From assembly GCA_963805625.1 (NCBI GenBank), contig CAWDVE010000004.1, positions 1 to 64,000 on the forward strand: a DNA stretch of 64,000 bases, read 5' to 3'. This DNA is from an uncultured Candidatus Rokubacteria bacterium (GTDB lineage Bacteria > Methylomirabilota > Methylomirabilia > Rokubacteriales > DASRDR01). The position numbers and the translations under genes were made by a program. Below, piece after piece: positions 21,805 through 37,012 of the stretch (position 1 is the first letter of the stretch; each line of letters begins with the position of its first letter). The notes below the pieces were generated by a model that ran no database searches, was not told the DNA's origin, and saw nothing but the letters and a program-made list of their open reading frames with translations.

Positions 21805-22790
21805 GCGCGCCGGCATCCGCGTCCGTCGTGGCAGGTGTGTCCCGGCGCCCGCTCACCGGCTATTGGGTGGGGTTCGGCGCCGTCGTCGGGCTTCTGGTGC
21901 TGGCTCCCCTCGTCCTCCCCGAATTCTGGCGCCGTTTCGTCACGGAGATCCTGATCTGGGGGCTCCTGGCGATGTCGTCGGACATCCTGATCGGTTACAC
22001 GGGCATGGTGTCGTTCGGCCACTCGGCGTTCTTCGGACTCGGCATGTACGGGGCGGCGGCTGCTCTGCTCGCCATCCGGCCACCGAGCCTCTGGCTGGCG
22101 ATCCTGGCGGGGCTCGTGGGCGCCGGGGCGGTCGCCGCCTGCGTCGCCTTCTTCGCGACACGACTGCGCGACATCTACTTCTCGATCACGACGCTCGTGT
22201 TCTCGCAGATCTTCTACGTGATCGTGTTCACCTGGACAGCTGTGACGGGGGGCGAGAACGGGCTCACGTTCAGGCAGCCCCCCCTCGGGCTTCCGGGCGT
22301 GGGCACGGTCGCCTTCACGCCGGTCACTCTTCACTGGTTCGTGCTCGCCGTAGTCACGCTCTCCTACCTCACGCTCAGGCGCATCCTCCGCTCACCCTTC
22401 GGCATGGTGCTCCAGGCTATCCGGGAGAACGAGCCACGGGTGCGCGCGATCGGATACCACGTGGAGCGGTACAAGATCGTGGCCGTGCTGCTGTCGGGCC
22501 TGTTCGCGGGCCTTGCCGGCGTGCTCTACGCCATCCAGAACAAGTTTGCGGCTCCCGACTTCATCCACTTCGTCCTCTCGGGCGAAACGGTGATCTTCAA
22601 CGTCATGGGCGGCATGGGCACGCTGGTCGGTCCCGTGGCCGGGGCGGCCTTCTTCCAGCTCCTCCGCGAGGGCGTCTCCCGGTTCTTCACCGAGTACTAC
22701 CTGATCCCGGTGGGCCTCGTCTTCACGGCGATGGTCATCTTCCTGCCGCAGGGGCTGCTCGGATTCCTCCGCCGGACGCTGAACCGCTGA
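21801..22790 (+). CDS. Liv-type ABC permease (LivM-like)
   Basis: GTGA overlap; GYTGMVSFGHSAFFG, TGGENG and SPFGMVLQAIRENE. Confidence 0.92.
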   Translation: MSAPASASVVAGVSRRPLTGYWVGFGAVVGLLVLAPLVLPEFWRRFVTEILIWGLLAMSSDILIGYTGMVSFGHSAFFGLGMYGAAAALLAIRPPSLWLAILAGLVGAGAVAACVAFFATRLRDIYFSITTLVFSQIFYVIVFTWTAVTGGENGLTFRQPPLGLPGVGTVAFTPVTLHWFVLAVVTLSYLTLRRILRSPFGMVLQAIRENEPRVRAIGYHVERYKIVAVLLSGLFAGLAGVLYAIQNKFAAPDFIHFVLSGETVIFNVMGGMGTLVGPVAGAAFFQLLREGVSRFFTEYYLIPVGLVFTAMVIFLPQGLLGFLRRTLNR

Positions 22791-22834
22791 GCGCGGGGCG
22801 CTTCCCAGAGCGCTTCCGGCCGGAGCCGCTGCCG

Positions 22835-22864
22835 TTGACGAACCCCGGGCGAGACGCCCACAAT
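22835..22864 (+). promoter_or_regulatory. Putative sigma70 promoter at the head of the lipid cluster
   Basis: TTGACG-N18-CACAAT, 9 nt before the ATG at 22874. Confidence 0.4.
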
Positions 22865-22873
22865 GGACCGTCT

Positions 22874-23713
22874 ATGACGTACCTATGCCGCGCGGATCGG
22901 CGCGGTCGGCCCGATCGGGACGCACTCCGGTGTCGCCGGCAGCGCCTGGTGACCGCGCTGGGGGTGGTGACGGTCCTCGGGCTTCTGGCGACGGCCTGCG
23001 CGGGGGCTCCGCCCGCCACCACGCCGGCCGCGACGCGGGGCCGCTTCGATCTCGAGCACGACGCCTTTGCCTTCGCGAACCTCGTGCGGGCCGAGCGTCC
23101 GGGCTTGAACGACGCCTTCGCCAACTACTGCCTGGTGATCGCGCGGGGCGCGAGCCAGTTCTACCGCTTCGCTCGATTCGCGGCGGACCAGCCCCCGGCG
23201 TCCCCGGAGGAGTACGACCGGCTCGTGCGCGCGGTCTTCTCGCAGCCGCCGTGGGCGCCGCCGGGGACCGAGGCCGAGCGGGTAGTCATCCCGGGGTACG
23301 CGGACCTCCACAGCTTCTCGGCCGCGCACGAGAGGGTCATCAAGGCGGCCCTCGGCTCAAACGTCTTCAGCATGGTGCACTGGCGCACGTGGCGCGTTGG
23401 GATCGACTTCTCGCCAGAGCACCAGGAGCGCCTCGCGCGAGAGCTCATCGCCGAGGTGGATGCCGGCCGGCCGGTTCCGCTCATGATCACGAACTTTCCG
23501 CATGAGGACCTTCTCAACCATTCGGTCCTGGTCTACGATCGCCGGCCGGCCCAGCAGGGGACGGACTTCGCCGCCTACGACCCGAACGACCCGGGCTCGC
23601 CGCTCACGATCTACTACGACGACGTGCCCCGGGCCTTCTGGGTCGGTCCGCTCACCTACAGCCCTCCGGGGCGGGTGCGGGCCTTCCGGCTCTACACCTC
23701 GCCGCTCTTCTGA
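22874..23713 (+). CDS. Putative lipoprotein with papain/C39-like Cys-His-Asp signature
   Basis: Hydrophobic stretch ending in lipobox LATA-C. FAFAN...NYC, GRPVPLMI...NHSVLVYD and YDPN occur in the order typical of papain-like folds. Confidence 0.6.
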   Translation: MTYLCRADRRGRPDRDALRCRRQRLVTALGVVTVLGLLATACAGAPPATTPAATRGRFDLEHDAFAFANLVRAERPGLNDAFANYCLVIARGASQFYRFARFAADQPPASPEEYDRLVRAVFSQPPWAPPGTEAERVVIPGYADLHSFSAAHERVIKAALGSNVFSMVHWRTWRVGIDFSPEHQERLARELIAEVDAGRPVPLMITNFPHEDLLNHSVLVYDRRPAQQGTDFAAYDPNDPGSPLTIYYDDVPRAFWVGPLTYSPPGRVRAFRLYTSPLF

Positions 23714-23772
23714 CGCGTGCTCGTGCTCCCGCCGCGCGAGCGAGCCCGATCTACCGTCGATCGGAACGTGTT

Positions 23773-24687
23773 GTGGGAGTGACGGTCGCCGCCGGCGTGG
23801 ACGCTCCTCGCGCGCGCTGGCACGCCCACCCGTATAACCGCTCGCGCTACTACCGACTCGCGGCAGCCGCGGCGACACGGCTGCCGCGGCCGGTGAGGGT
23901 GTGGCTCGCCGAGCGCCTGGCGGGCCTGCTCATAGTCCGATTCCCCGCTGAGCGCGCGGCGGTGCGGCGGAACCTGACGCGCGTTCACCCGGGGCGGGAC
24001 GCAGCCTGGCTGGACGCGGCCGTCGATCGGGTGTTCGCGCGCTTCGCCGTGTGCTTCGGCGACCTCCTCTCACTGAACCGCGAGGAGTCCGGACTCTGGC
24101 GACACGTTGTGGTGGGGAACGGCCAGGAGCCGACGCTCAACGCGCTGGCGGGGGGACGGGGCTGCGTGTGCATCACCGCGCATCTGGGGAATTGGGAATT
24201 GGGGGGACGGCTACTCGCGACCTTGGGCCGGCCGGTTCACGTGGTGATGGCGCCGGAAGAGGACCCCGCCGTCGGCGCGTTGCTCGATCGGGGAGGCCAC
24301 CCGGGGCAGCGGTTCGTGCGCCTGACGAGCCCGATGGTCGGCGTCGAGCTGGTTGCCGCGTTGCGCCGGGGAGAGGTCGTCGCGTTCCAGCTCGACCGCT
24401 CGCTGGGCGGGCGAGGGGACGCGGCGGTGCCGTTCTTCGGCGCTCCCGTGACGTTCCCGCTGGGGCCGTTCCTGATGGCGGCCGCCGCCGGCGCGCCGGT
24501 GGTTCTGGCCTTCTGCGTGCTCGAGGCGGGTGGGAGCTATCGTCTCCACGTCGAGCCGGTGCTCGCGGTGTCGCGCGGGGGCGAGGTGGAGGCGCTCAGC
24601 GCCGCGGTGGCGACCCTGGAGCGCTACGTCCGGACGCACTGGGACCAGTGGTTCAACTTCTACGACGTCTGGGAGCGCGTGTCGTGA
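23773..24687 (+). CDS. Lysophospholipid/lipid A lauroyl acyltransferase family (LpxL-like)
   Basis: TAHLGNWE, VAFQLDR, VPFFG...FPLGPF and C-terminal DQWFNFYDVW, as seen in aryl-polyene-type cluster acyltransferases. Confidence 0.88.
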   Translation: MGVTVAAGVDAPRARWHAHPYNRSRYYRLAAAAATRLPRPVRVWLAERLAGLLIVRFPAERAAVRRNLTRVHPGRDAAWLDAAVDRVFARFAVCFGDLLSLNREESGLWRHVVVGNGQEPTLNALAGGRGCVCITAHLGNWELGGRLLATLGRPVHVVMAPEEDPAVGALLDRGGHPGQRFVRLTSPMVGVELVAALRRGEVVAFQLDRSLGGRGDAAVPFFGAPVTFPLGPFLMAAAAGAPVVLAFCVLEAGGSYRLHVEPVLAVSRGGEVEALSAAVATLERYVRTHWDQWFNFYDVWERVS

Positions 24688-25925
24688 AGGGGACTCTGGC
24701 CCCACGGGTCTCGCCGGTTGCCATCACGGGCGCCGGCGTGGTGACCGCGATCGGCCAGGATCTGGACGGTTTCTGGGCCGGGCTCGTCACGGGGGTGTCC
24801 GGCATCAGCGAGATCGAGGGCTTTCCCGTGGGAGACCTGCGGGTCACGCGGGCCGGAGAGGTTAAGAAGCTCCGGCGGGACATTCCAGCCGCGCCCCGTG
24901 GGGGCGATGGACGGCCCCGCCGTGCCACCTACTGCCGCACTTCGCGGTTCCTCATCCACGCCGCTCGGGAGGCCCTGGAGACCGCCGAGCTCAGGGATGC
25001 GCTGCCCGCCGCCGACCGGATCGGGGTGGTCGTCGGCACCGCGCTGGGCGGGATCGATGAGGCGAGCCGCGCTCTCGCCGTGCGGGGCGCGCTCAGAGCG
25101 CTGACGGGCTCCGTGTACGACGGTCCGACACGCAATCTGGCACGCTGGCTGGGAGCCCGGGGGCCGGCTTTGACCGTGACGACGGCCTGCGCGTCGGGCG
25201 CCACCAGCCTCGGCCTCGCCGCCGACCTCCTACGCGCGGGCCAGGCGGACGTCGTCTTGGCGGGTGGGGCTGACGGGCTGTGCCGGTTCGTCCAGCGCGG
25301 CTTCAACGTGCTGCGCTCGCTGACGCGCGACGCGGTGCGCCCGTTCGACCGGCGTCGAAGCGGTCTCCTTCTCGGCGAGGGGGCGGGCCTGGTTGTCTTG
25401 GAGCGCGTCGACACGGCCGTGCGCCGAGGGCACCGACCGCTCGGGTACCTCCTCGGCCATGCGAGCACGGCGGACGGCGCCCACATCACGGCGCCGGACC
25501 CGGAGGGGCGGGGGCTCGAGCTCGCCGTGCGAGCCGCCCTCATGGAGGCCGGACTCGCGCCCGCCGCGCTGGACCTGGTGAGCGCGCACGGGACGGGGAC
25601 GCCGGCGAACGACCGCGTCGAGACCGACGTGCTGAAGCGCGTCCTCGGTCCGCGCGCCCACGCTATCCCGGTGAACTCCATCAAGGCGCACCTCGGCCAC
25701 ACCATGGGCGCGGCGGCGACACTCGAGGCGATCATGTGCCTCCTGGCCGGCCGCCATGGCCAGGTACCGCCGACCCTCAACTATGGCGAGGCGGACCCCG
25801 AGTGCGATCTGGACTGCGTGCCGAACGCGGCGCGGATCTGGCGGCCACGGATGAGCCTGTCGACCTCGCTCGGCTTTGGCGGGTGTAACGCCGCCCTGGT
25901 GCTGGCAACGGGAGAGGAGCCGTGA
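24684..25925 (+). CDS. Beta-ketoacyl-ACP synthase (type II KS) with intact Cys-His-His
   Basis: TTACASG, RPFD..RSGLLLGEGAG, SAHGTGT, KAHLGHT and SLGFGG. Confidence 0.93.
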   Translation: MKGTLAPRVSPVAITGAGVVTAIGQDLDGFWAGLVTGVSGISEIEGFPVGDLRVTRAGEVKKLRRDIPAAPRGGDGRPRRATYCRTSRFLIHAAREALETAELRDALPAADRIGVVVGTALGGIDEASRALAVRGALRALTGSVYDGPTRNLARWLGARGPALTVTTACASGATSLGLAADLLRAGQADVVLAGGADGLCRFVQRGFNVLRSLTRDAVRPFDRRRSGLLLGEGAGLVVLERVDTAVRRGHRPLGYLLGHASTADGAHITAPDPEGRGLELAVRAALMEAGLAPAALDLVSAHGTGTPANDRVETDVLKRVLGPRAHAIPVNSIKAHLGHTMGAAATLEAIMCLLAGRHGQVPPTLNYGEADPECDLDCVPNAARIWRPRMSLSTSLGFGGCNAALVLATGEEP

Positions 25926-26878
25926 GAGCGGCGGCGGCGCGCTCGGAGCTCGTGAACCCGCCGGCGCCCAGGATCCGGGGGATCGGCGCGGTCACGGGTT
26001 GGGGGGACGGTGTCCAGGCGCTGCCCGAGGCTATCGCCCAGCATGGCGAGCGCGGCGGGGGGCTGGTGACGGCGCCGACGCCCGTCCTGGGCGGTGACCG
26101 GTTCCGACGCGCGACGCGTGAATGCCTGCTCGCCGTCGCGGCCGCGAAGGCGGCGGTCGCCGATGCCGGACTCGCGGAGGCGGAGCTAGCGGGCCCGCGA
26201 ACGGGTATCCTGTACGTGAGCGCCACAGGGTACGCCGCCGCGAACCGGGCGTTCCTCGAGGACGAGACGTCCACGACGCTTCACTTCCCGTACACCTCGC
26301 CCAGCGCGGTGCCCGGCGAGGTGACGATCGAGCTGGGAATCCGGGGGCCGTACGTCAACCTCATGGGCGGCGCCCCGGCGACGTTCCAGGCGCTCTGGTG
26401 GGCGGCGCGCTGGCTGGCCGAGGGCCGAGCCGACCGGTTTCTTGTCCTCGCCGTGGAGGCGTTTCACGAGGTGCGGGACTTGTTCGGTCGAGCCCGACGG
26501 CTGTACGCGGGCCCCCTCGTCGAAGGGGCGGCGTGCCTGCTGCTGGAACCGGGCGAGGGGAGCGTCCTCCGCTGGGCATCCGCGCTCGCCGGGCCGACGG
26601 GTGTGCGGGGCACGGTTGCGGCGGTGCTCGAGCGAGTGCTGGACGGCGAGCGACCCGGCCTCGTCTGGAGCGGGTCTACGGGGGCGAGCCGGGGAACCGC
26701 CGAGGCAAGGATCCTGGCAGCCCGGGGAGCCCCGGCACCGGTGCCCCGTCTGGGCGAAGCCCTGGCAATGGGGCCGCTTCTCGCGCTGGCCCGGATCCAC
26801 GGCGAGAGAGCGGCTAGGCCCTGCCTGCTGACCGCCACGTGGCGAAGCGAGTACGCGGCGCTGCTGTGGCCTCGGTAG
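25922..26878 (+). CDS. Truncated non-catalytic KS homologue (chain-length-factor-like)
   Basis: KS N-terminal domain (FPYTSPSAVPGEVTIELGIRGPYVNL) with Gly/Ala where the catalytic Cys lies. EGAACLLLE present; no HGTGT. Confidence 0.75.
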   Translation: MRAAAARSELVNPPAPRIRGIGAVTGWGDGVQALPEAIAQHGERGGGLVTAPTPVLGGDRFRRATRECLLAVAAAKAAVADAGLAEAELAGPRTGILYVSATGYAAANRAFLEDETSTTLHFPYTSPSAVPGEVTIELGIRGPYVNLMGGAPATFQALWWAARWLAEGRADRFLVLAVEAFHEVRDLFGRARRLYAGPLVEGAACLLLEPGEGSVLRWASALAGPTGVRGTVAAVLERVLDGERPGLVWSGSTGASRGTAEARILAARGAPAPVPRLGEALAMGPLLALARIHGERAARPCLLTATWRSEYAALLWPR

Positions 26879-26897
26879 GCACGACACGGGAGGATGG

Positions 26898-27173
26898 ATG
26901 GACGACCGAGCGATCATCGGGGAGTTGCGCGACATCGTCGTCAAGCGACTCCGGTTCGACCCTGCGCGTCTGACCGCGCTGACCTCAGAGACGCCCCTCC
27001 CGAAGGGTGTCGAGGGGGCACTCGGGCTCGACTCGCTCGATTTCATCGAGCTCTCGATCGCGCTGGAGGAGCGATTCGGCATCGTGATCCAGGAGGGCGA
27101 GGACGTGGCCGCTCACTTCGGCACGTTCGGCGCCCTCGTGCGCTTCGTGGGCGCGCGAGCCCAGGGCAGCTGA
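26898..27173 (+). CDS. Acyl carrier protein
   Basis: LGLDSLDFIEL phosphopantetheine site and EERFGI; acidic, 91 aa. Confidence 0.93.
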   Translation: MDDRAIIGELRDIVVKRLRFDPARLTALTSETPLPKGVEGALGLDSLDFIELSIALEERFGIVIQEGEDVAAHFGTFGALVRFVGARAQGS

Positions 27174-27298
27174 GACTCCGTCCCGAATGACCGGCCGGCC
27201 CGCTCAGAAGCGCCGGGACCCCCTGCCCCCTCGGGAAGGGTGGTCCACCACAGGCCGAAGGCCGTCCATGAATCAGGGGAGGCCCGTCTCTGGAGGGA

Positions 27299-27335
27299 CG
27301 CGACGTCCTGAGGGCCGCAGGCCCGAAGCGTCGCG
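27299..27335. repeat. REP-like palindromic element
   Basis: CGCGACG-tc-CTGAG-GGCC-GCA-GGCC-CGAAG-CGTCGCG nested hairpin in the ACP-KS spacer. Confidence 0.45.
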
Positions 27336-27344
27336 GCGAGTCGA

Positions 27345-28565
27345 ATGACGCGGGTTCTCGTCACGGGCCTCGGAGTCGTCAGCCCGTACGGCGCCGGCCG
27401 GGGCGCCTTCTGGGAGGGCCTGACGGCGGGCCGGTGCGCAATCGGTCCCATCGGACTCTTCGACACGGAGGGGTTCCGCGCCCGCGTCGGGGCCGAGGTG
27501 CCCGCTGGCACCGCGCTTCCCGGTGTGTCCCTGCGCCGCTCGCGGGCCGACCGGTTTGCTGTGGCGGCGGCGGACGAAGCCGTCCTGGACGCGGGCCTCT
27601 CGCGCGCGGAGGTGCGCCCGGCGGCGGTGATCGTCGGCGGCATCGGGGGCGGCATGCTCGAAGCCGAGGCCTGGTTCTGGCGGCGCGAGCGCGACCGAGT
27701 AGATGACCCGAAGCTCCGGACGGCGCTCAGGAGCATCTTGCCGTTCGCCCATGCTGACGTCGTCGCGCGCCGCTACGGGACGACCGGCCCCAAGGAGACC
27801 GTGGTCCTGGCCTGTAGCTCCGGTGGCGCGGCGCTGGGGCTGGCGGCCGAGTTGATCGCCTCCGGCGAGGTCGCCCTGGCCCTCGCGGGGGGCGTCGATG
27901 CCATGACCCGGATCTGCTTCATGGGCTTCAACGCGCTGAAGCTCCTTGATCCCGCGCCCTGCCGTCCGTTCTCGCGGGATCGCCGGGGCATGTCGCTCGG
28001 GGAGGGCGCGGGGTTCGTCGTGCTCGAAGGCGAGGCGCACGCCCGGGCGCGCGGCGCGCGCGCCTATGCGGAGCTGGTCAGTTACGGGCTGACCACGGAC
28101 GCCTGGCATCTCACCTCGCCCCACCCCGACGGCGAGGGCAGCGTTCGGGCAATGGCGGAGGCGCTGGACCGAGCGGGCGTTCCGGCGAGCGCGGTGGGGT
28201 ACATCAACGCGCACGGGACCGGCACGCCTCAGAACGACCGTGTCGAGGCCGCGGCCCTCCGTAAGCTGTTCGACCCGGACGCGGTGCTCGTGAGCGCCAA
28301 CAAGTCCCTCGTGGGGCATGCGATGGCGGCAGCCGGCGCGCTGGAGGCGATCGCAACGGTGCTGACGCTCGTCCACGGGCTCATCCCGCCCACCGCCAAC
28401 CTCGCCGAGACGGACCCCGAGGTGGTCTTCGACTGCGTGCCCAATGTCGCGCGTCCCGCACCGGTCGAGTGCGCCCTGTCGAATTCCTTCGGGTTCGGCG
28501 GCCAGAACCTGAGCCTCCTGTTCCGGTGCGTCGCCGCTCCGCGGAGCCCGGATGCCGCCCGGTGA
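27345..28565 (+). CDS. Beta-ketoacyl-ACP synthase (type II KS) with intact Cys-His-His
   Basis: VLACSSG, CRPFS.DRRGMSLGEGAG, NAHGTGT, KSLVGHA and SNSFGFGG. Confidence 0.93.
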   Translation: MTRVLVTGLGVVSPYGAGRGAFWEGLTAGRCAIGPIGLFDTEGFRARVGAEVPAGTALPGVSLRRSRADRFAVAAADEAVLDAGLSRAEVRPAAVIVGGIGGGMLEAEAWFWRRERDRVDDPKLRTALRSILPFAHADVVARRYGTTGPKETVVLACSSGGAALGLAAELIASGEVALALAGGVDAMTRICFMGFNALKLLDPAPCRPFSRDRRGMSLGEGAGFVVLEGEAHARARGARAYAELVSYGLTTDAWHLTSPHPDGEGSVRAMAEALDRAGVPASAVGYINAHGTGTPQNDRVEAAALRKLFDPDAVLVSANKSLVGHAMAAAGALEAIATVLTLVHGLIPPTANLAETDPEVVFDCVPNVARPAPVECALSNSFGFGGQNLSLLFRCVAAPRSPDAAR

Positions 28566-29817
28566 GCGCGAGGGTGGTGCCCGACCCCGCGTCGTCGTCA
28601 CTGGGGTGGGCAGCGTGAGCGCGCTTGGTGCCGGCGACGGCGCCGCCGTGGGCGAGGCGCTGGCGCGAGGGGCGCCCGCCATCGGGCCGGTCCAGGCCTT
28701 TCCGACCGATGGCTGCTCGAGCCGGCTCGGTGGCGAGGTCGGTGACCTCACGACGCACCTCCGGGACGGGGAGGCGCGGCGGCTGTCGCGGGCCAGCCAG
28801 CTCGCGGTCGTCGCCTCCCGGCTCGCCTTGACGGACGCGAGCCTCCAGCCGGGCCAGCCGGCCGCGATGGGGCTCGTGCTCGGATCGCACTGGGGCGACT
28901 TTCGCTCCTCGGAGACCTTTGCGCTCGGGTTCCTCGAGCGGGGGATACTCGGACTCTCCCCCCTCGTCTTCCCGAGCACGGTGATGAACGCCATGGCCGC
29001 CCAAGTGTCGATCGCCGTCGGCGTCCGCGGGCCGATGCTCACGCTGAACGAGGTCGATGTGGCCGGCGAGCTCGCCGTGGCCCGGGGCGCCGCCCTGATC
29101 GCCTCGGGGAGGGCGAGCGTGGTCCTTGCGGGTGGGAGCGACGAGCTCTCCCCGATTCTCTATCGTGAGCTGAGCCGGCTCGGGACCATGTCCCGGACGG
29201 CACCGGGCCCCGAGGGATGCCGGCCATTCGACCGCCGGGCTAACGGCACGGTTCTGGGGGAGGGGGCGACGTTCCTGGTCCTGGAATCAGCGGAGGCCGC
29301 GCTGGCACGAGGCGTGCGCGTCTACGGCGAACTGGCGGGCTCGGCGTGGGGCAATCTTCCGACGCCCGCGCACGGCTTCCCGTCGCCCCGGCGGCGCGAC
29401 CCGTTGACGATCCGCCGTGCGCTCGCCTCGGCCGGCGTGGAGCCCGAGGCTGTCGAGACCGCCTACCTGACCGGATCGGGTCATCCGGAGCACGACGCGT
29501 GCGAGCTCGACCTCGTGGCCCGGGCCCTGGGGAGCGGGCGTGCCCGCCTGAGCGCGCTGACCCCACTGGTCGGCGAGCACGCGGGTCTCGGTGCGCTGCG
29601 TGCTGCCGCAGCGGCGCTCGCCGTGTCGGGTTCCGGAGTGTGCATGCTCCCCGACCTCTCGGAGCCGATCCGCCACGATCTCCGGTTTGTTGTGCGCTCC
29701 GAGAGCCGGTCGGGGGGCGCGCCCGAGACGGCGCTGGTCCACGGCCTCGCCCGCGGCGGCACCCACGTCGCGCTGGTGCTCCGGACCTTCGGCCAGGCTC
29801 GGAAGGCCGCCGCATGA
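28552..29817 (+). CDS. Full-length non-catalytic KS homologue (chain-length factor)
   Basis: KS fold (SPLVFPSTVMNA, CRPFD...GEGA), but NEVDVAG replaces TAC-ASG, YLTGSG replaces AHGTGT and LVGEH replaces LGH. Confidence 0.85.
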   Translation: MPPGEREGGARPRVVVTGVGSVSALGAGDGAAVGEALARGAPAIGPVQAFPTDGCSSRLGGEVGDLTTHLRDGEARRLSRASQLAVVASRLALTDASLQPGQPAAMGLVLGSHWGDFRSSETFALGFLERGILGLSPLVFPSTVMNAMAAQVSIAVGVRGPMLTLNEVDVAGELAVARGAALIASGRASVVLAGGSDELSPILYRELSRLGTMSRTAPGPEGCRPFDRRANGTVLGEGATFLVLESAEAALARGVRVYGELAGSAWGNLPTPAHGFPSPRRRDPLTIRRALASAGVEPEAVETAYLTGSGHPEHDACELDLVARALGSGRARLSALTPLVGEHAGLGALRAAAAALAVSGSGVCMLPDLSEPIRHDLRFVVRSESRSGGAPETALVHGLARGGTHVALVLRTFGQARKAAA

Positions 29818-30560
29818 ACGACAGGCTGTGGGCCGTCGTCCCGGTGTTCGACGAGGTCCGCACGCTCGGCAGCGTCGTCGAGCGGCTTCGCGCGCACTGC
29901 CCCGTGATCGTGGTGGACGACGCCTCCACAGACGGGAGCGCCGGGGTCGCGGCTCGGGCCGGCGCCGTGGAGGTTCTGCGGCACGCGCGCCGCGAGGGCA
30001 AAGGCGCCGCGCTCCGGACGGGATTCGGTGCCGCGCTCCGCCGCGGGGCAACCGCGGTTGCCACCCTGGATGGAGACGGCCAGCACGATCCAGCGGATCT
30101 GCCCCGCCTTCTCGCCGTTCACTCCGAGGCCCCGGAGGCTCTCGTTCTGGGCCATCGGTTTGGTGCCGCGGCGGGCGACCCCATCCCGCCGCTCCGGCGC
30201 GTGGCGATTCGCGCCGCGGACCGAGCTCTCGGACCCATCCTCCCGGCCCCTCTGTCGGACAGTCAATGCGGGTTCCGGATCTATCCAGGAGCGTTTCTGC
30301 GCGAGGTTGCACTGCGCGAGGGTGGATTCGTTCTCGAGACGGAAGTGTTGGTCCGGGCAGCGTGGGCGGGATACCCGCTGGTCTCGGTGCCGATCCGCTC
30401 CGTGTACCCGCGCGGCCGCCGGAGCCGCTTCCACGCCGTGACGGATGTCGCCAGGATCGCGTGGTACCTGACACGCGTCTGGTTCGGAGGCGGGGGGCGG
30501 GCCGGCATCGTCCGGCCGGCCGCCGTCGCCTCGGGAGCCCGTCTTGCGCGCGAGCTCTGA
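29814..30560 (+). CDS. Glycosyltransferase family 2 (DPM1-like)
   Basis: VVPVFDE, VVDDASTD, GKGAALRTG, TLDGDGQHDP and DSQCGFRIY; ATGA overlap. Confidence 0.92.
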   Translation: MNDRLWAVVPVFDEVRTLGSVVERLRAHCPVIVVDDASTDGSAGVAARAGAVEVLRHARREGKGAALRTGFGAALRRGATAVATLDGDGQHDPADLPRLLAVHSEAPEALVLGHRFGAAAGDPIPPLRRVAIRAADRALGPILPAPLSDSQCGFRIYPGAFLREVALREGGFVLETEVLVRAAWAGYPLVSVPIRSVYPRGRRSRFHAVTDVARIAWYLTRVWFGGGGRAGIVRPAAVASGARLAREL

Positions 30561-30738
30561 GCGGCTGCGCGCGCGCCTCCCGATGGAGCTCGCCATGCCG
30601 GCCCGACTCGACGTTCGGTGAAGGGTGGGAGCCGGTGGGGTCGATCGGCCGCGTGAGCGCCGGGCTCCTCGGGGTCGTGTGGCTGGCCATCTGGCGCCGC
30701 CGCTGGCCCGGGCTCTCGCTGGAATCGCAGCTCTCGTG

Positions 30739-31944
30739 GTGAGCGGCCGGGCGGTGGCGCGTCGGCGGCGCCTCCTGCCCCGAGGCTACGGGTTCGCTGT
30801 TGCCGGTATCGCCGTCGGGATGGCCGGTCTCGTGGCTCTGGGCGCCCTCGCCGATCGCATCAGCCGGTTCATCGACGGCGGGCACCGCTTCGTCCTGGGA
30901 CAGATCTCGGTGGCGGGTGCGGGCATCGGCACGGGAGCCGGCTTCACGGCGGGTGGCCTCCTGCGCCGCCAGACCATCGAGGCGATTCGCCGGGTCCCGG
31001 GAGTCGCCGCCATCCAGGCGCAGGTGATGCTGCCGTTGAATCCGGGTACGTCCGAGCTCTTCTCCGTGAACCAGGAGCTGGTCCTGGGCGTCGACCTCGG
31101 TGTCCCGTCGCCGAACCGCAACTACCCGATCTCCCCGATCGCCGAGGGACGGGTCCTGGTTCCCACCGACCGCGGTCGCGTCATGGTCGGCGCCGAGCTG
31201 GCGGCGGGTCGGGCGCTTCGCTCCGGATCCCACCTCCGGATCGGTGAGCGAGACTTCGAGGTCGTCGGCGTTCTGGAGCGTCTCCTCACCGCGCCCGACC
31301 GCTTCGCTGTCCTGCCGATCGAGGACGCTCGCGATCTCTGGCTCGCCCTCGACCCCACGCTCCGCGCGCTGTTCGGCGCGGGCGGCGTCCTGGCCCGGGA
31401 GGACCTCAACACCGGCGCGGCCGTGGGCTGGGCGGACGGTGTGGACCATGACGCCCTCGCGGCGCGCATTCGCCGGGAAGTGGCCGGCGTCAACGTCGCC
31501 GCGCCGGGCGAGGTGGCGCGCCAGCTTGCCGCCTCGACGGCGTTCTTCTCCTGGCTCATGGCAGGCATCGCGGGGATCGGGCTTCTCATCGGCGGGCTCT
31601 CCCTCTCGAACACCGTCGCGGCGTCGACCTTCGAGCGGATCCGGGACTTCGGGATCAAGCAGGCACTCGGTGCCACCGACCTCCAGCTCCTGGGTGAGGT
31701 TCTCCGGGAGAGCCTCGCGGTGAGTCTCGGGGGTGGCCTCCTCGGAACGACCCTTGCGGTCCTACTCGGGATTGCGGTCGACGCCCGGGCGGCCAGGGCG
31801 GGACAGGAGCTGTTCCTCTTCTCGGGCCGTCTGATCGCGTTCGCTCTCGGATTCGCGGTCGTCCTCGGGGCCGTCGCGGGCGCCTACGCGACCGTCCGAA
31901 TCCTGCGGGTGCCCCCGGCCGAGGCGATCCGCCGCGGAGCCTGA
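30739..31944 (+). CDS. ABC exporter permease (FtsX/MacB/LolCE-like); start uncertain
   Basis: N-terminal TM (GIAVGMAGLVAL), periplasmic domain, NTVAASTFERIRDFGIKQALGA and C-terminal PAEAIR. Confidence 0.85.
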   Translation: MSGRAVARRRRLLPRGYGFAVAGIAVGMAGLVALGALADRISRFIDGGHRFVLGQISVAGAGIGTGAGFTAGGLLRRQTIEAIRRVPGVAAIQAQVMLPLNPGTSELFSVNQELVLGVDLGVPSPNRNYPISPIAEGRVLVPTDRGRVMVGAELAAGRALRSGSHLRIGERDFEVVGVLERLLTAPDRFAVLPIEDARDLWLALDPTLRALFGAGGVLAREDLNTGAAVGWADGVDHDALAARIRREVAGVNVAAPGEVARQLAASTAFFSWLMAGIAGIGLLIGGLSLSNTVAASTFERIRDFGIKQALGATDLQLLGEVLRESLAVSLGGGLLGTTLAVLLGIAVDARAARAGQELFLFSGRLIAFALGFAVVLGAVAGAYATVRILRVPPAEAIRRGA

Positions 31945-31948
31945 GACC

Positions 31949-32647
31949 ATGAACACCGGCGCGGCGCTTCTCCGGGCGTCCGGCCTCGCGAAGCGCTTCC
32001 GCCTCCCGGACGGGCGTGTCCTCGAGGTACTCCGCGGGGTGGACCTCGCGCTCGCGCCCGGGGAGCTGGTAGCCGTGATCGGGCGGTCCGGATCCGGAAA
32101 GTCCACGCTCCTGAACCTCCTCGGCTGTCTCGACCGGTCCGATGGCGGGGAGCTCTGGTTCCGGGGCCAGCGCCTGACCGGGGCGAGCCGTCGGGCCATG
32201 GCCGGCTTTCGCGGCCGGCACCTCGGCTTCGTCTTCCAGACGTACAATCTCATCCCCGAGCTCACCGCGCGCGAGAACGTCCTCCTCGCCGCGCGCTACG
32301 TGGGCCGTCCGCGGGCGGAGGCCGAGGCGGCGGCGCGCGATCTCCTCCAGCGTCTGGGCGTCTGGGAGCAGGCGGAACAGTACCCGCCCGCGCTCTCCGG
32401 CGGTGAGCAGCAGCGGGTCGCGTTCTGCCGGGCCGTTCTGAACGACCCGGTCGTGATCCTGGCCGACGAGCCGACGGGCAACCTGGACGCAGAGAACGCC
32501 TGCGTACTGCTCGCGGAGCTCCGGGCGCGGGCGCGGAGCGGCCGCGCGGCGGTCCTGCTGGTGACGCACAGTGTGGAGCTCGCCCGCGCCGCGGACCGCA
32601 CGCTGACCCTGATCGACGGTCAGCTTGGCACAGAGGGGCGGACATGA
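31949..32647 (+). CDS. ABC exporter ATP-binding protein (LolD/MacB-like)
   Basis: GRSGSGKSTLL, GFVFQTYNL, LSGGEQQRV and ADEPTGNLD. Confidence 0.93.
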   Translation: MNTGAALLRASGLAKRFRLPDGRVLEVLRGVDLALAPGELVAVIGRSGSGKSTLLNLLGCLDRSDGGELWFRGQRLTGASRRAMAGFRGRHLGFVFQTYNLIPELTARENVLLAARYVGRPRAEAEAAARDLLQRLGVWEQAEQYPPALSGGEQQRVAFCRAVLNDPVVILADEPTGNLDAENACVLLAELRARARSGRAAVLLVTHSVELARAADRTLTLIDGQLGTEGRT

Positions 32648-32787
32648 TGACACCGTGCGCTCCGGCGCGATCGTGGTCATCCGGAACGAACGGCCTCATC
32701 GGGCACGGGGTGACGTCGGTCTTCGCGGCTGCCGGCTACGACATGCAGTTGGAGGAGCTGTTCCGACCCCTCCGGAGACAGGGCTGA
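32644..32787 (+). pseudogene. Remnant of a 3-hydroxyacyl-CoA dehydrogenase-type Rossmann N-terminus
   Basis: Across a frameshift at a GAAC duplication it reads AIVVI(R)N-GLIGHGVTSVFAAAGYDMQL, then stops. Confidence 0.5.
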
Positions 32788-32881
32788 CGCGGTTCTGCCA
32801 GGTCAGCTCTGGTACGCTGCGCAGGTCTGCAGCACGCCGGACCGGTGGGCTGTCAGGCAAGAGGGAACGGGAGGATCTCGT

Positions 32882-34075
32882 TTGGGGAAGGTCCAACGTG
32901 CCATCGTGCTGGGGACGGATCCTGGGGCGGAGATCGTGGTCGGGGGTCTGCCGCTGGCCGTACGGGCCGTCCTGGCCTTGCACGCGGCCGGCTTCGACGA
33001 TGTTGGGCTCGTCGTCCCGGGAAGGCCCCGATGGGCTGCTGAGCCGCTCGCGTGCCGCCGGGTCTCGGTCCAGTGGGTGGAGCCCGCCACCGACCTTTCG
33101 GGCTTCGGGGATGCCTTCACCCTCCTTCTGGCTGGAGACGTGCTCCTGGACAGCGCCGCCGTCGCGGCTCTTCGGGCCGCGCCTCCGGGCCCCGTCTTGA
33201 CCGCGGCAGGCCGGCTCGTCGGAGTCGTGTGTGGTCCTGTCGACGCGTTGACGTGTTTTCGACGTCCTGATCTCTGGACGCGGTCGCCGGGGCCCGGGAC
33301 CCGAATCGCGGCCGGCCTCGCGGTGCCGCTCGGGGTCGCCGGGTCGCGTGCTGGCCTGGAGCGGGCACTGATCCAGTCCCTCGCGGGCCGGGCGACCAGT
33401 GACAGCTACTTGGCGACCCTGTTCGACCGTCCCATGTCCAGGCCGCTCACGCGGCTGATCCTCCGGACCCCGCTCGCTCCCTCGCACGTGACGCTCCTCG
33501 GCGTGGCGGCCGGGCTTCTCGGGGCGGGGGGGTTGGCGACGGTGTCATACTGGGGGCGCTTTGGCGGAGTGATCCTCCTGCTCGCCTCCGTCGTGCTCGA
33601 TTGTGTCGACGGCGACATGGCCCGGGCGCGACTCGCGCAGAACCCGGCGGGCGCGCGGCTGGACGTGATGGGTGACTACCTGGTGCACCTGGCGGTCTTC
33701 ACCGGACTGGCCACCGGCCTCTGGCGTGAGGGGTTGCCGGCAAGCGGCCTCTGGGTGGCGCTGACCTTGATCGCCGGCGTCGGTGCGGCGATGGCAGCGG
33801 TTCACCTGCTCTTCATCCGTCCCGCCCTTCGACAGAGCGGCGACCTCCACTGGGCCGGCGACACGTGGAGCCTTCGCGGCCGGCCGGGGGCGATGGTTGC
33901 CGAGAAGCTGGCGAGCCGCGACTACACGTATCTGCTCCTGGTGCTGGCGGCCATCGGTCACCTTGAATGGTTCCTCTACGCTGCCGCTGGAGGCGCGTGG
34001 ATCTTCACCGTGGCTCTGGTCGCGTATCGGGTTTTGGCCATGCCCAGCCGCTGTCGGGACGCAGTATCCCGGTGA
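32882..34075 (+). CDS. CDP-alcohol phosphotransferase with degenerate N-terminal nucleotidyltransferase-like domain
   Basis: Signature DCVDGDMARARLAQNPAGARLDVMGD and PSHVT. N-terminal VGGLPLAVRAVLALHAAG and AGDVLLD resemble NTP-transferase elements. Confidence 0.85.
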   Translation: MGKVQRAIVLGTDPGAEIVVGGLPLAVRAVLALHAAGFDDVGLVVPGRPRWAAEPLACRRVSVQWVEPATDLSGFGDAFTLLLAGDVLLDSAAVAALRAAPPGPVLTAAGRLVGVVCGPVDALTCFRRPDLWTRSPGPGTRIAAGLAVPLGVAGSRAGLERALIQSLAGRATSDSYLATLFDRPMSRPLTRLILRTPLAPSHVTLLGVAAGLLGAGGLATVSYWGRFGGVILLLASVVLDCVDGDMARARLAQNPAGARLDVMGDYLVHLAVFTGLATGLWREGLPASGLWVALTLIAGVGAAMAAVHLLFIRPALRQSGDLHWAGDTWSLRGRPGAMVAEKLASRDYTYLLLVLAAIGHLEWFLYAAAGGAWIFTVALVAYRVLAMPSRCRDAVSR

Positions 34076-35124
34076 TGGCGTTCCGGCGCCGCGGCCTCGA
34101 GCTGGCATGCCTAGCTCTCGGTGTGGCAGTCCTGGCCGGCACCGTCTGGGCCATCGGGGCCGAGACTCTCGCCCGGGACCTTCGCACCCTGGGGTGGGGT
34201 CTCGCGGTCATCCTGCTGGTCGAGAGTCTGAGCGTCGCCTTGAACACCGGCGGCTGGGCGCTGGCCTTTCCGAGCGGCGAGCGGCCGGTCAGCGCCGGAT
34301 GGCTATTCGGTGCCCGCCTGGCCGGCGACGCCGTCAACTACCTCACCCCATCGGCCACTGTTGGAGGAGAGCTCCTCCGAGTGCGCCTGCTGGGCCCGCA
34401 CGTCTCCTCGACCCTCCGATGGGCATCCGTGAGCGTTGCCAAGATCGGCCAGTCGCTGGCCCAGGCCGTCTTCATCCTGCTGGGCCTTGCCATCGCCCTC
34501 CCGGGGCTGGCCGTGGCGCGCGGGTGGATCGGGTGGGGGGGCGCGATCGTCGCCGCCTCCGTGGCTGGTGCGGCCGCCATCGCGCCCTGGGTCGCGTTCG
34601 TCTGGGCGGTCGACCGGGGCTTCTGGACGGCGACCCGGGGCGCGCTCCGGCGGGTCCGCCTCGGCTGGCTTCTGCCGGTGTCTTGGGCCGGCCCCGGCCG
34701 CGATCTCGATGCCACACTCGCGCGACTGGGCCCATGGCGGGTGGCCGCGTCGCTCGGTTGCTTCGTTGCAGGATGGGTCGTGGGAGCGGCGGAGATCTAC
34801 CTCATCCTCCACTGGGTCGGCGGCGCGGTGGACTGGCGGACGGCGCTGTCCCTCGAGACGGGGTCGGTGCTCATCGATGGTATTCTCTTCTTCGTGCCCG
34901 CCAAGGTAGGAACGCAGGAGGGGGGCAAGGTGGTGCTCTTCGCGACCCTCGGGCTCAATCCGGCCCGTGGCCTCACAGTTGGTGTGGTGCGGCGTATCAG
35001 GGAGTTGGTCTACGCGGGGCTTGGCCTAGCCGTCCTGGGCTGGATGAGCGCTCGCCCAGAGGCCAGTCCGACTCGACTCCAGACTCCTGCCGCTGCGGGC
35101 CGGGGCAGTTCCGGGCGTGTCTGA
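34075..35124 (+). CDS. Lysylphosphatidylglycerol-synthase TM/flippase-like membrane protein (HpnL-like)
   Basis: RLAGDAVNYLTPSATVGGE, FFVPAKVGTQEGG and VRRIRELVY; multi-TM. Confidence 0.85.
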   Translation: MAFRRRGLELACLALGVAVLAGTVWAIGAETLARDLRTLGWGLAVILLVESLSVALNTGGWALAFPSGERPVSAGWLFGARLAGDAVNYLTPSATVGGELLRVRLLGPHVSSTLRWASVSVAKIGQSLAQAVFILLGLAIALPGLAVARGWIGWGGAIVAASVAGAAAIAPWVAFVWAVDRGFWTATRGALRRVRLGWLLPVSWAGPGRDLDATLARLGPWRVAASLGCFVAGWVVGAAEIYLILHWVGGAVDWRTALSLETGSVLIDGILFFVPAKVGTQEGGKVVLFATLGLNPARGLTVGVVRRIRELVYAGLGLAVLGWMSARPEASPTRLQTPAAAGRGSSGRV

Positions 35125-36595
35125 GGGTCTCGTGGCGCTCCGGACGCTGTTCCTCCATCCTCCCGCGTTCGAAGGCTTCGATGGCGGCGCAGGATCCCGG
35201 TACCAGGCGCGTCGAGAGATCCGCTCGTTCTGGTACCCGACCTGGCTCGCCCAGCCCGCCGCGCTCGTGCCCGGCAGCCGTCTGATCGACGCGCCGCCCG
35301 ACGGCCTGACCGTCGAGCGGGTGGCCCCGCTCGCCCGAGAGTACGACCAGGTGGTGATGCACACCAGCACGCCCTCCTTCGGCAGTGACCTCCGGGTCGC
35401 GGAGCGCTTGAAGGACGAGAATCCGAAGGTCCTGGTAGGCCTGGTGGGTGCCCATGTGGCTGTGCTCCCGGAGGCGTCGCTCCGCGCGGCGCGCGCCGTG
35501 GACTGGGTGGGCGTGGGGGAGTTCGACCACGCGTGCGCCGAGGTCGCACAGGGGCGGCCGCTCGCCGACGTGAAAGGTATCGCGTACCGTGACGGAGACC
35601 GGATCCGGTTCACGCCGCCCCGGTCGCCGATCGAGGACATGGACGGCCTGCCCTTCGTGGTCGACGTCTACCGGCGGGACCTGACGATCGAGAACTACTT
35701 CATCGGCTACCTCCTCCACCCCTATGTCTCGCTCTACACGGGACGGGGGTGCCGGTCCAAGTGCACCTTCTGTCTGTGGCCGCAGACTGTTGGCGGCCAT
35801 CGGTACCGGGTGCGGAGCGCCGAGAGCGTCGAGGCCGAGATGGTGCTGGCCAAGCGCTACTTCCCCCAGGTCCGGGAGTTCTTCTTCGACGACGATACGT
35901 TCACGGACGACCTCCCGCGCGCCGAGGAGATCGCTCGCCGCCTGGGCCGTCTCGGTATCACCTGGTCTTGCAACGCGAAGGCGAACGTCCCGCGGCGGAC
36001 GCTCGAGATCCTGCGGGACAACGGTCTTCGGCTCCTCCTGGTCGGCTACGAGTCGGGGGATCAGCGGATCCTGAACAACATCAAGAAGGGGCTGCGCCTC
36101 GACATCGCCCGGGAGTTCACCCGGAACGCGAAGGCGCTTGGCATCACAATCCACGGGACGTTCATCCTCGGCCTCCCGGGGGAGACGCCCGCGACGATCC
36201 AGGAGACGATCCGCTACGCGTGCGAGATCGAGCCCGACACGATCCAGGTCTCCCTCGCCGCGCCGTACCCGGGCACGGCGCTCTATCGCCAGGCAGAGGA
36301 GCAGGGGTGGCTCCCGCGGGCGACGAGCGATCTAGTGAACCGGGACGGGGTCCAGCTGGCGGCCCTGGACTACCCTGGTCTCCCGCAGTCGGAGGTCTTC
36401 GACTCGGTCGAGGCCTTCTACCGCCGGTTCTACTTCCGTCCCCGGAAAATCGTCGCGATGGTCGGCGGGATGATGCGGGATCCGGCCGTCATGCGGCGGC
36501 GGCTTCGGGAGGGCGTCGAGTTCTTCAGGTTTCTGCGGGAGCGGCGCATGAGCTCGCCCGAGGCCCGGCCCGCGGTCTCGAGCGCGGGGGGCTGA
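35117..36595 (+). CDS. hpnJ: Hopanoid-biosynthesis-associated radical SAM protein HpnJ
   Basis: N-terminus TLFLHPPAFEGFDGGAGSRYQARREIRSFWYPTWLAQPAALV, CRSKCTFC (CxxxCxxC), FFFDDDTF and C-terminal RRLREGVEFFRFL. Confidence 0.9.
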   Translation: MSEGLVALRTLFLHPPAFEGFDGGAGSRYQARREIRSFWYPTWLAQPAALVPGSRLIDAPPDGLTVERVAPLAREYDQVVMHTSTPSFGSDLRVAERLKDENPKVLVGLVGAHVAVLPEASLRAARAVDWVGVGEFDHACAEVAQGRPLADVKGIAYRDGDRIRFTPPRSPIEDMDGLPFVVDVYRRDLTIENYFIGYLLHPYVSLYTGRGCRSKCTFCLWPQTVGGHRYRVRSAESVEAEMVLAKRYFPQVREFFFDDDTFTDDLPRAEEIARRLGRLGITWSCNAKANVPRRTLEILRDNGLRLLLVGYESGDQRILNNIKKGLRLDIAREFTRNAKALGITIHGTFILGLPGETPATIQETIRYACEIEPDTIQVSLAAPYPGTALYRQAEEQGWLPRATSDLVNRDGVQLAALDYPGLPQSEVFDSVEAFYRRFYFRPRKIVAMVGGMMRDPAVMRRRLREGVEFFRFLRERRMSSPEARPAVSSAGG

Positions 36596-36607
36596 GCGGC
36601 CGAGGCC

Positions 36608-37012
36608 ATGCGCGTTCTGTTTGTCTGTCGCGGCAACATCTGCCGGAGCCGGGTGGGGGAGCAGATGTTCCAGGTCCTCACGTGGAGCGTTGAGGGCCGG
36701 GGCGACCACGAGGCGCGCTCGGCTGGCGTCGATCCGGACTCGGGTGGCCGCCCGGTGACGGGGCGGGACGTCGCGTGGGCCGACGTGATCTGCGTGATGG
36801 AGGCAGAGCACGAGATCTACATCCGGAAGCACTGGCCCGCACAGGTCCGGAAAGTGCGTGTCCTCGGGATCCCGGACATCTACGAACCCGACGATCCGGG
36901 ACTCCGTGACCGCCTCACGGAGGTGGTGCGAGGGCTCATGGCGGAAGCCTCGGGTAAGGGCTCCGGTCCGGCTCCTACTCCGGGCGGCCAGCCCTCGGGA
37001 CTCCACGGCTGA
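36608..37012 (+). CDS. Low-molecular-weight protein-tyrosine phosphatase
   Basis: LFVCRGNICRS P-loop, RSAG, WADVICVME and LGIPD. Confidence 0.9.
   Translation: MRVLFVCRGNICRSRVGEQMFQVLTWSVEGRGDHEARSAGVDPDSGGRPVTGRDVAWADVICVMEAEHEIYIRKHWPAQVRKVRVLGIPDIYEPDDPGLRDRLTEVVRGLMAEASGKGSGPAPTPGGQPSGLHG

Follow-up and report, generated by a model that had tools for sequence, protein, structure and literature searches.

The window analysed here is a 64,000-nucleotide stretch from an uncultured Candidatus Rokubacteria bacterium (assembly GCA_963805625.1, contig CAWDVE010000004.1, positions 1 to 64,000), and the locus under study is a run of 13 open reading frames (ORFs) on its plus strand, from 22874 to 36595, in which ketosynthase (KS) genes stand next to hpnJ, a gene of hopanoid cyclitol-ether synthesis. 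The source genome (G000, the window being its contig C4) measures 7.27 Mb and is 99.9% complete with 6.3% contamination. The original prediction for this locus, made from the letters and their ORFs, described 13 co-oriented genes, many of them overlapping, and assigned each to a family; the coordinates hold, 6 of the 12 junctions overlap, and the families hold in profile searches, with the HpnL-like protein staying below the TIGR03476 cut-off. The features are given below, the genes being divided into a module A and a module B. KS-like proteins without the catalytic Cys are named chain-length factors (CLFs), ACP stands for acyl carrier protein, ABC for ATP-binding cassette, SAM for S-adenosylmethionine and LMW for low-molecular-weight.

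22835..22864, + strand: sigma-70-like promoter match (by consensus alone), immediately before the lipoprotein gene
22874..23713, + strand: lipoprotein with a papain-like fold, module A (lipobox Cys42; Cys86/His216/Asp236)
23773..24687, + strand: LpxL-family acyltransferase, module A (Lip_A_acyltrans PF03279, 82.5 bits)
24684..25925, + strand: ketosynthase KS1, module A (catalytic Cys/His/His intact; own clade)
25922..26878, + strand: CLF1, short divergent chain-length-factor-like protein, module A (without the catalytic Cys)
26898..27173, + strand: dedicated ACP, module A (PP-binding; GLDS motif, Ser46)
27345..28565, + strand: ketosynthase KS2, module A (catalytic Cys/His/His intact; own clade)
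28552..29817, + strand: CLF2, chain-length-factor-like protein, module A (Asp in place of Cys)
29814..30560, + strand: GT2 glycosyltransferase, module A (Glycos_transf_2; lipid-phosphate-sugar synthase type)
30625..31944, + strand: MacB/FtsX-type ABC permease, module A (FtsX+MacB_PCD; true start possibly further in)
31949..32647, + strand: LolD-like ABC ATPase, module A (ABC_tran)
32644..32790, + strand: 3-hydroxyacyl-CoA dehydrogenase gene remnant (5' end), at the module junction, which is prone to insertions
32882..34075, + strand: CDP-alcohol phosphotransferase, module B (CDP-OH_P_transf, 25.2 bits, cut-off 22)
34075..35124, + strand: HpnL-like membrane protein, predicted flippase, module B (LPG_synthase_TM PF03706, 69.6 bits)
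35117..36595, + strand: HpnJ, B12-binding radical SAM enzyme, module B (Cys212/216/219; TIGR03471)
36608..37012, + strand: LMW phosphatase-like ORF, a co-oriented 14th gene starting 12 nt after hpnJ

The promoter match is the sole one in 22600-37200 (shuffles give 0.3 +/- 0.7), scans for promoters and terminators being weak in a genome of 72% GC. The LMW phosphatase-like ORF is observed only in loci of the window's own genus and is probably a passenger. The cluster as a whole is real, conserved and uncharacterised, and all its parts belong to known families. No published account was found of this cluster, of HpnJ together with a CDP-alcohol phosphotransferase, of a GT28 enzyme replacing HpnI or of a phospho-hopanoid, in a search that most subscription papers lay outside. 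In the accessible parts of the sources, Rokubacterial hopanoids appear only through hpnP/shc surveys (PMC10697835) and Rokubacterial KS content is reported only in bulk (10.1101/818815).

The locus is a Rokubacteriales-wide cluster. Of 111 sampled genomes of the phylum, a KS2 ortholog is present in 61, hpnJ in 65 and both in 55; KS2 and hpnJ share one contig and one strand, 7-21 kb apart, in 34 of these 55, and lie on different contigs in the remaining 21, possibly through contig breaks (a minority of these cases was inspected). The order lipoprotein-acyltransferase-KS1-CLF1-ACP-KS2-CLF2-GT2-(halogenase-like)-permease-ATPase ... hpnJ is kept in both well-sampled families, f1, to which the window belongs, and f2, and because it recurs in two families of the order it goes far beyond chance. 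The middle of the locus is occupied in f1 by the CDP-alcohol phosphotransferase and HpnL-like genes; f2 encodes there a small lipoprotein, a small EamA protein and a glycosyltransferase resembling ArnT (ArnT model score 90 bits, cut-off 567). Many relatives carry a flavin halogenase-like gene (GxGxxG, WxWxIP and Lys motif) between GT2 and permease, which is missing at the window locus; a gene of this kind also occurs in xanthomonadin-type clusters. A GT2-halogenase fusion reads cleanly at loci L055 and L062, and the linker seen at L061 looks like a frameshift. A short-chain dehydrogenase/reductase (SDR) gene lies upstream in only 3 mapped relative loci with the KS block.

The linkage just described stands beside separations, so that the two halves first proposed as one block are partly linked and partly not: they are apart in genomes G002, G118, G088 and G109 and in genera g8 and g28. 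In g8 and g28, hpnJ sits at the shc/hpnN locus; it adjoins hpnN at the shc locus in G021, G034, G077 and G109, and it is kept with no KS2 match in G088 (100% complete) and G109 (95%). Conversely, the KS block occurs without hpnJ in G002 and G118, and a 145-codon hpnJ remnant is left in G098. Each of these last three genomes has another hpnJ together with an hpnI-like gene; the KS-linked hpnJ is lost in G118 and reduced to a remnant in G098 in the presence of an hpnI-hpnJ cassette.

The two halves meet at the gap that follows the lolD stop (32647) and precedes the phosphotransferase start (32882). It measures 234 nt, not the 235 first given, and the gene remnant reported in it is confirmed: relatives have a complete 3-hydroxyacyl-CoA dehydrogenase gene, of which the 5' end, in decayed form, is left here (71% identity over 21 amino acids, and 77% at the DNA level, to the gene in L044). 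In family f1 the junction takes up unrelated insertions, namely genes for PA14 proteins, a dehydrogenase, a histidine kinase and a DNA methylase. Among RNA contigs assembled from one run (0.14 of words), whose library may contain DNA, one piece spans 32777-33045 and none of the pieces listed bridges lolD and the phosphotransferase gene.

The preferred reading, held with moderate confidence, is that of two neighbouring envelope-lipid modules: module A would make an APE-like acyl-sugar-phospholipid (APE, aryl polyene), and module B an HpnI-free hopanoid cyclitol ether that then receives a phospho head group. A single product made by all 13 genes, the main idea of the original prediction, is not supported as the likeliest reading: the halves separate in relatives, unrelated genes insert at the junction, and it is hopanoid genes, not KS genes, with which the phosphotransferase and HpnL-like genes are associated.

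Module A is most readily compared with the APE/APEL (aryl polyene lipid) clusters apeA-R of E. coli CFT073 and Xenorhabdus doucetiae, with which it shares KS/CLF genes, an ApeE-like dedicated ACP, an ApeJ-type GT2 with an LpxL-type acyltransferase, and an exporter of its own. The original view of an uncharacterised lipid locus with APE-like architecture is supported. The GT2 is the genome's best match to the N-terminal half of CFT073 ApeJ (34% over 228 amino acids), the acyltransferase its best match to the C-terminal half (30% over 231), and the ACP its best match to ApeE, with a higher score for ApeE than for AcpP. The role proposed for ApeJ is to attach GalNAc to a glycerophosphate lipid before acylating it (10.1101/2020.12.19.423268; likewise PMC8253772, in its accessible part). 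Unlike APE clusters, the locus has two KS/CLF pairs on one ACP, ApeJ split into two genes, no reductase or dehydratase, a MacB-type ABC transporter instead of the RND/LolA system (ApeM/L/N), and an additional papain-like lipoprotein. No aryl starter ligase ApeH, dehydratase (ApeI/P) or ketoreductase (ApeQ) is found among the 13 genes, and tblastn with CFT073 proteins (E<=1e-5) gives no match in the genome for ApeH, ApeI, ApeP, ApeM, ApeL, ApeN, ApeG, ApeA, ApeB or ApeC, the ApeH negative resting on a single CFT073 query that distant forms may escape. Module A therefore looks, from its sequences, like a stripped APE-lipid-like system that nevertheless falls outside APE membership.

Both ketosynthases score below every curated cut-off tried, with 330 and 353 bits on the FabF model TIGR03150 (cut-off 494) and 263 and 270 bits on NF005076 (cut-off 629), which we take to be the rhizobial long-chain KS model. 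In trees of 19 of the 55 rows of a first quick tree, from which CLFs and near-duplicates were left out, they form their own clades (support 100/99 and 100/100), and their joining with ApeO/ApeR, to which they are only about 31% identical, is neither established (support 47/51) nor rejected (approximately unbiased test probabilities, p-AU, of 0.28 and 0.52), with one reference each. Grouping of KS2 with FabF is marginally rejected (p-AU 0.045), and a separate FabF gene lies on contig C10. The KSs thus fall in no demonstrated characterised clade, in line with the novelty first proposed for the locus. Their top Protein Data Bank (PDB) matches are FabFs and 9S5H, probably an anammox KS/CLF-like pair, whose chain B comes first for KS1 and second for KS2. 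The accessible part of the report on anammox ladderane cluster I describes an amxFabF2/amxFabF-mut heterodimer (10.64898/2026.05.19.726425); as far as that part goes, the present locus is alike in its active KS with an inactive partner, its special ACP and a nearby B12 radical SAM gene, and differs in having no FabZ or phytoene-dehydrogenase-like gene and in that its radical SAM protein is HpnJ (81 bits on TIGR04072, cut-off 360).

The lipoprotein that opens module A has Cys, His and Asp residues invariant in 61 distant homologs; two of its close homologs carry the label Candidatus Rokuibacteriota. Its predicted structure (mean confidence, pLDDT, 79) matches mostly papain-like proteases with Z scores of 7.9-6, the best match reaching Z 7.9 with a root-mean-square deviation of 4.1 over 145 aligned residues; Foldseek returns no match at E<=0.001. 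From this model, a periplasmic acyl hydrolase or transacylase is predicted. The distant homologs stem mostly from Verrucomicrobiota, and their 80 loci include an MMPL or MMPL-LpxL cluster in 22 cases and a KS in 8. The loci L117-L195 (Verrucomicrobiota and others) comprise APE-like clusters carrying the same lipoprotein family, with MMPL-LpxL fusions, LolA, a FabA-like dehydratase, a halogenase-like gene, KS/CLF/FabG/ACP, a methyltransferase and a radical SAM gene; no hpnJ is called in the Verrucomicrobiota clusters of this kind.

Module B contains a bona fide HpnJ, with 756 bits on the equivalog model TIGR03471 (cut-off 578) and 66% identity to HpnJ of Mycetohabitans (Burkholderiaceae), no distinctive changes being seen. 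In a tree of 22 of the 39 HpnJ rows and one actinobacterial row, KS-linked copies group with shc-linked, native hpnI-linked and fused copies (support 98/97). The HpnI-HpnK-HpnJ route to bacteriohopanetetrol cyclitol ether comes from Burkholderia cenocepacia genetics (PMC12583986 and PMC13459092, accessible parts). Like that route, the window genome has an HpnJ over the equivalog cut-off, with an HpnL-like neighbour, and shc, hpnH and hpnG; these three lie on C10 with a Mla-type ABC system and an intact nucleotidyltransferase (C10:1180442-1181191), the hpnG call being a likeness to a relative's protein that itself scores 114 bits for a cut-off of 187. Unlike it, hpnI was not found in the source genome (best score 26 bits, cut-off 310; no match with Mycetohabitans HpnI), hpnK exists only as an unlinked YdjC-family protein among ABC genes (100 bits, cut-off 233; 35% to Mycetohabitans HpnK), and a CDP-alcohol phosphotransferase is added beside a KS block. 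That this hpnJ stands outside the standard hpnI/hpnK cassette is supported and applies widely, hpnI being within 4 kb of hpnJ in 0 of the 34 KS-linked copies and giving no match in 50 of the 65 hpnJ genomes of the sample. As far as the accessible texts go, hpnI, hpnK and hpnJ occur in Alphaproteobacteria nearly always all three or none (PMC12583986), Acidobacteria often miss hpnK and keep hpnI (PMC5462960), the HpnJ reaction is known from genetics alone (PMC13459092, PMC9204698, PMC9092360) and was never biochemically assayed (PMC9092360), and HpnL is without known function (PMC12324291). Among relatives, shc is found in 38 of 41; the idea that f2 has no shc, so that its HpnJ would necessarily be non-hopanoid, was ruled out by its presence in 16 of 17 f2 genomes.

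The phosphotransferase of module B displays the full D-x-x-D-G-x-x-A-R...G-x-x-x-D-x-x-x-D motif, with D240, D243, G244, R248, G257, D261 and D265 conserved in 13 sequences, behind a degenerate nucleotidyltransferase-like N-terminal part (weak match). AF2299 (PDB 4O6M), its best PDB match, and IPCT/DIPPS (PDB 4MND) share the complete motif and are the closest structures, and an intact nucleotidyltransferase is available at the shc locus; they differ from the window enzyme in its degenerate N-terminal part, its tie to hpnJ/hpnL, and the finding of no inositol-phosphate synthase in the genome. The HpnL-like protein reaches 127 bits on TIGR03476 (cut-off 196), passes PF03706 and is 31% identical to the Mycetohabitans protein at the hpnL position.

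Fusion of HpnJ to a related CDP-alcohol phosphotransferase is seen in 26 of 31 long homologs, and hpnI-hpnJ::CDP-hpnL-hpnN cassettes occur in G058, G088 and G098, that is in 3 of the 9 hpnI-adjacent copies fetched out of 11; over 228 amino acids, the enzyme of the window shares 40% identity with the fused domain. Such fusions are about 880 amino acids long and stand in cassettes without hpnK (L203:6070-8724, L206:6380-9031, L210:6425-9076; P0273-P0298), one member of the cluster being labelled Gemmatimonadota. HpnI::HpnJ fusions are also seen (P0271, P0272, P0301), and P0300, a long molybdopterin-like::HpnJ sequence, seems to be a frame artefact. Of the 17 f2 genomes, 8 carry a phosphotransferase homolog on the same contig as shc and no more than about 15 kb from it, near genes for nucleotidyltransferase, Ino1, HpnL-like and HpnN proteins. 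An intact hpnJ is kept in G004, where deletion has removed the phosphotransferase and HpnL genes, so that these two look like an optional later step. On these sequence grounds (hpnJ at the shc locus, the separations, the shc-near phosphotransferases and the fusions), module B likely points to hopanoids rather than to the KS block.

Head-group genes vary among relatives. The f2 shc loci L094-L105, L111 and L112 hold variable kits, each with a CDP-alcohol phosphotransferase and often HpnL: Ino1; a nucleotidyltransferase; a phosphoenolpyruvate (PEP) mutase-like fusion with a phosphonopyruvate decarboxylase-like gene; or a set of HAD, nucleotidyltransferase, aminotransferase and Gfo-Idh-MocA genes. 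An inositol or phosphonate head group made in the source genome was considered and rejected, Ino1 not being found there and PEP mutase giving at best 130 bits (cut-off 320). HpnN is present in 1 of 21 f1 genomes (a weak match) versus 17 of 17 in f2, and the f1 shc locus encodes, besides its Mla-type system, an Omp85-family protein and an outer-membrane efflux protein. In G072 (L204:6118-7362), a sulfotransferase gene directly follows an hpnI-hpnK-hpnJ cassette and precedes an MMPL gene, a hint that a sulfated hopanoid may be made.

An HpnI-free module B calls for another glycosyltransferase, and the best candidate, judged from gene distribution, is most likely a GT28 (MGDG/UgtP-like) enzyme, usually accompanied by a NodB-type deacetylase. 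Over 78 genomes of the order, hpnJ is found in 61 and GT28 in 66; GT28 is present in 56 of the 61 hpnJ genomes, and 4 of the 5 others have an hpnI-like gene. Fisher tests on these counts were not taken as evidence, since related genomes are not independent. GT28 lies within 5 kb of hpnJ in 23 genomes of the order and directly behind hpnN in G077 and G109. Outside the order, Streptosporangiaceae-like contigs hold GT28 with hpnJ in 68 of 80 loci, nearly always directly upstream, in a set found with a GT28::HpnJ query; HpnR (830 bits, cut-off 650) is present in 56 of the 80, and neither hpnI nor hpnK gives a match in these loci. Their GT28-hpnJ-hpnR-SDR cassette was seen in metagenome contigs L235-L314 (for example L242:3420-4904). 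P0299 was not counted as a true GT28::HpnJ fusion, being a single sequence with the fused ORF in 1 of 80 related loci. Other possible replacements are an HpnI-unlike GT2 on C16 (26 bits) and, in f2, the ArnT-like enzyme.

All the chemistry set out here is read from observed gene content, catalytic residues, linkage, fusions and losses. In module A, two KS/CLF heterodimers would extend a chain on the dedicated ACP, with reductase and dehydratase borrowed from fatty-acid synthesis. A hexosamine would be attached to a lipid phosphate by the GT2 and would then receive the chain through the LpxL-like enzyme, in keeping with the proposal made for the two ApeJ halves. The MacB-type ABC transporter may then export the product, and the papain-like lipoprotein may trim or transfer an acyl group in the periplasm. 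In module B, the starting point would be bacteriohopanetetrol from the unlinked shc/hpnH/hpnG genes. An enzyme other than HpnI, most likely the pair of GT28 and NodB-type deacetylase (G000:C25:32725-34550), would add a sugar, whose ring HpnJ would contract to give a cyclitol ether; a phospho head group of unspecified kind would come from the CDP-alcohol phosphotransferase, and the HpnL-like protein would flip the product.

Several points weigh against this division into two modules and its chemistry. The long-lived linkage fits a functional tie, and in f2 no clear break shows in the closely spaced genes lolD-(lipoprotein)-EamA-ArnT-like-hpnJ; in the window, a consensus scan of the gap after lolD (72% GC genome) gives no terminator or promoter match. 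Four genomes (G058, G072, G105, G112) hold a KS-linked hpnJ and a second one beside hpnI, which fits distinct jobs. The linkage, the packing and the four double-copy genomes together keep the joint readings alive, the counts over relatives being those of kin and not independent. A separate KS-linked HpnJ clade was not found, yet it is not rejected either (p-AU 0.097). The phosphotransferase tree has four unresolved clades, in which the window's enzyme is not shown to be orthologous to the fused one, and the source genome yields no inositol-phosphate synthase, no PEP mutase over the cut-off and no HpnN. As for GT28, its pairing with HpnJ in Streptosporangiaceae is enriched by design because of the query used; rokubacterial and actinobacterial GT28 are only distantly alike (130-144 bits versus 173 for an own paralog); the source-genome GT28/deacetylase pair is unlinked, behind an undecaprenyl diphosphate synthase gene; this GT28 is annotated in the diacylglycerol glycosyltransferase family; and GT28 occurs in 10 genomes without hpnJ.

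Among the joint readings, a single pathway to an undescribed envelope lipid is a tentative possibility: a polyketide-type acyl chain, which would be halogenated in most relatives, would be combined with an HpnI-free HpnJ aminocyclitol, phospho-capped and flipped by HpnL, on a hopanoid or glycerolipid anchor. A strictly non-hopanoid version, in which module A makes an acylated hexosamine lipid whose sugar HpnJ contracts to a cyclitol in the manner proposed for pactamycin or calditol, appears rather unlikely. It draws on the linkage in 34 of 55 genomes with hpnI beside none of the 34 copies, on the second, hpnI-linked hpnJ kept by four genomes, on the module A GT2 being the sole glycosyltransferase of the cluster, and on a precedent for radical ring contraction of non-hopanoid glycosides (PMC9092360, accessible part). 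That source also provides a parallel in the pactamycin aminocyclopentitol pathway (PtmJ, PtmI, PtmC) and calditol synthase, which share with the present locus, according to its accessible part, a glycosyltransferase, an ACP, a KS and a ring-contracting radical SAM enzyme in one locus, and pactamycin is proposed to be glycosylated on an ACP-bound ketoacyl before the radical SAM step (PMC9092360). The present locus differs in its bona fide HpnJ, in the dominance of membrane-lipid genes and in halves that separate in relatives. Against the non-hopanoid version, hpnJ is found at the shc locus and is kept in genomes with no KS2 match, KS blocks without hpnJ occur (G002, G118), HpnJ is without special divergence, and the phosphotransferase and HpnL genes track hopanoid genes. 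In addition, an APEL-type sugar 1-phosphate anchor would be unlike the O-glycoside known as HpnJ substrate.

It is improbable that the product is a hybrid hopanoid, that is, the cyclitol-ether hopanoid of module B acylated by the LpxL-like enzyme or the lipoprotein of module A and exported by the ABC transporter. The lasting linkage suits this idea, acylated hopanoid glycosides exist, the modelled lipoprotein fold would be capable of transacylation, and f1, mostly without HpnN (1 of 21, weak, against 17 of 17 in f2), would need another exporter; yet f2 has HpnN and keeps the linkage, and a Mla-type ABC system is present at the shc locus. Module A's own ApeJ-like GT2/acyltransferase pair moreover implies an anchor of its own, and the same lipoprotein family occurs in Verrucomicrobiota APE-like clusters without hpnJ. 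Slightly more doubtful still is a module A that modifies lipid A, with a very long or special fatty acid made by the KS/CLF proteins and added by the LpxL-like enzyme, module B being a separate hopanoid module; in f2, the GT2/EamA/ArnT-like set would add a hexosamine to lipid A. LpxC and LpxK are present in the genome, the acyltransferase belongs to the lipid A family, and f2 has its ArnT-like enzyme (90 bits, cut-off 567) and small EamA protein. The acyltransferase and GT2 nevertheless match the ApeJ halves, a second LpxL-like gene is found elsewhere (C21), the KSs stay under the NF005076 cut-off (263/270 bits for 629), and acylating lipid A would need no dedicated exporter or halogenase-like gene. 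Clusters for LpxXL-type long-chain acylation of lipid A include FabZ-like and dehydrogenase partners, which are absent from this cluster.

Module A represents an order-wide, stripped APE-like system with two KS/CLF pairs and an uncharacterised product. Surveys of cyclitol-ether capacity based on hpnI/hpnK would overlook most Rokubacteriales, given the 50 of 65 hpnJ genomes without an hpnI match. The HpnJ::phosphotransferase fusion and the GT28 swap make the roles of HpnJ and HpnL testable and predict phospho-head-group hopanoids that standard surveys would miss. A milder form of the one-pathway reading, if true, would still mean a hopanoid cyclitol ether carrying a phospho group, a route that does not depend on HpnI, and a function for HpnL in an abundant uncultured soil order. 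The hopanoid C-3 methylase HpnR of the Streptosporangiaceae-like contigs bears on the sources of 3-methylhopanoids in acidic soils.

Some further observations concern the surroundings and relatives of the locus. Within the window, 5 kb downstream and behind a response-regulator/kinase set, UDP-sugar dehydrogenase-like and epimerase-like ORFs (41341-43709; labels from ORF reading) could supply sugars to the locus. The source genome has a second FabF-ACP-FabF-like trio (L226:9177-11884, on G000:C19), in which the second KS has its His replaced by Gln; it lies directly upstream of three histidine kinases and is kept in several relatives. In some genomes the acyltransferase is relocated and paired with a 412-amino-acid methyltransferase (L051:5606-6844, L056:18260-19501, L069, L211, L215). 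A second instance in which genes for the hopanoid sugar adjoin a KS/acyltransferase block comes from G068 of family f7 (L198:7004-14886): there, hpnI and a YdjC deacetylase gene stand next to a FabA-like gene, two KS-like genes and a fusion of ACPS with LpxL, and hpnJ is on a different contig.

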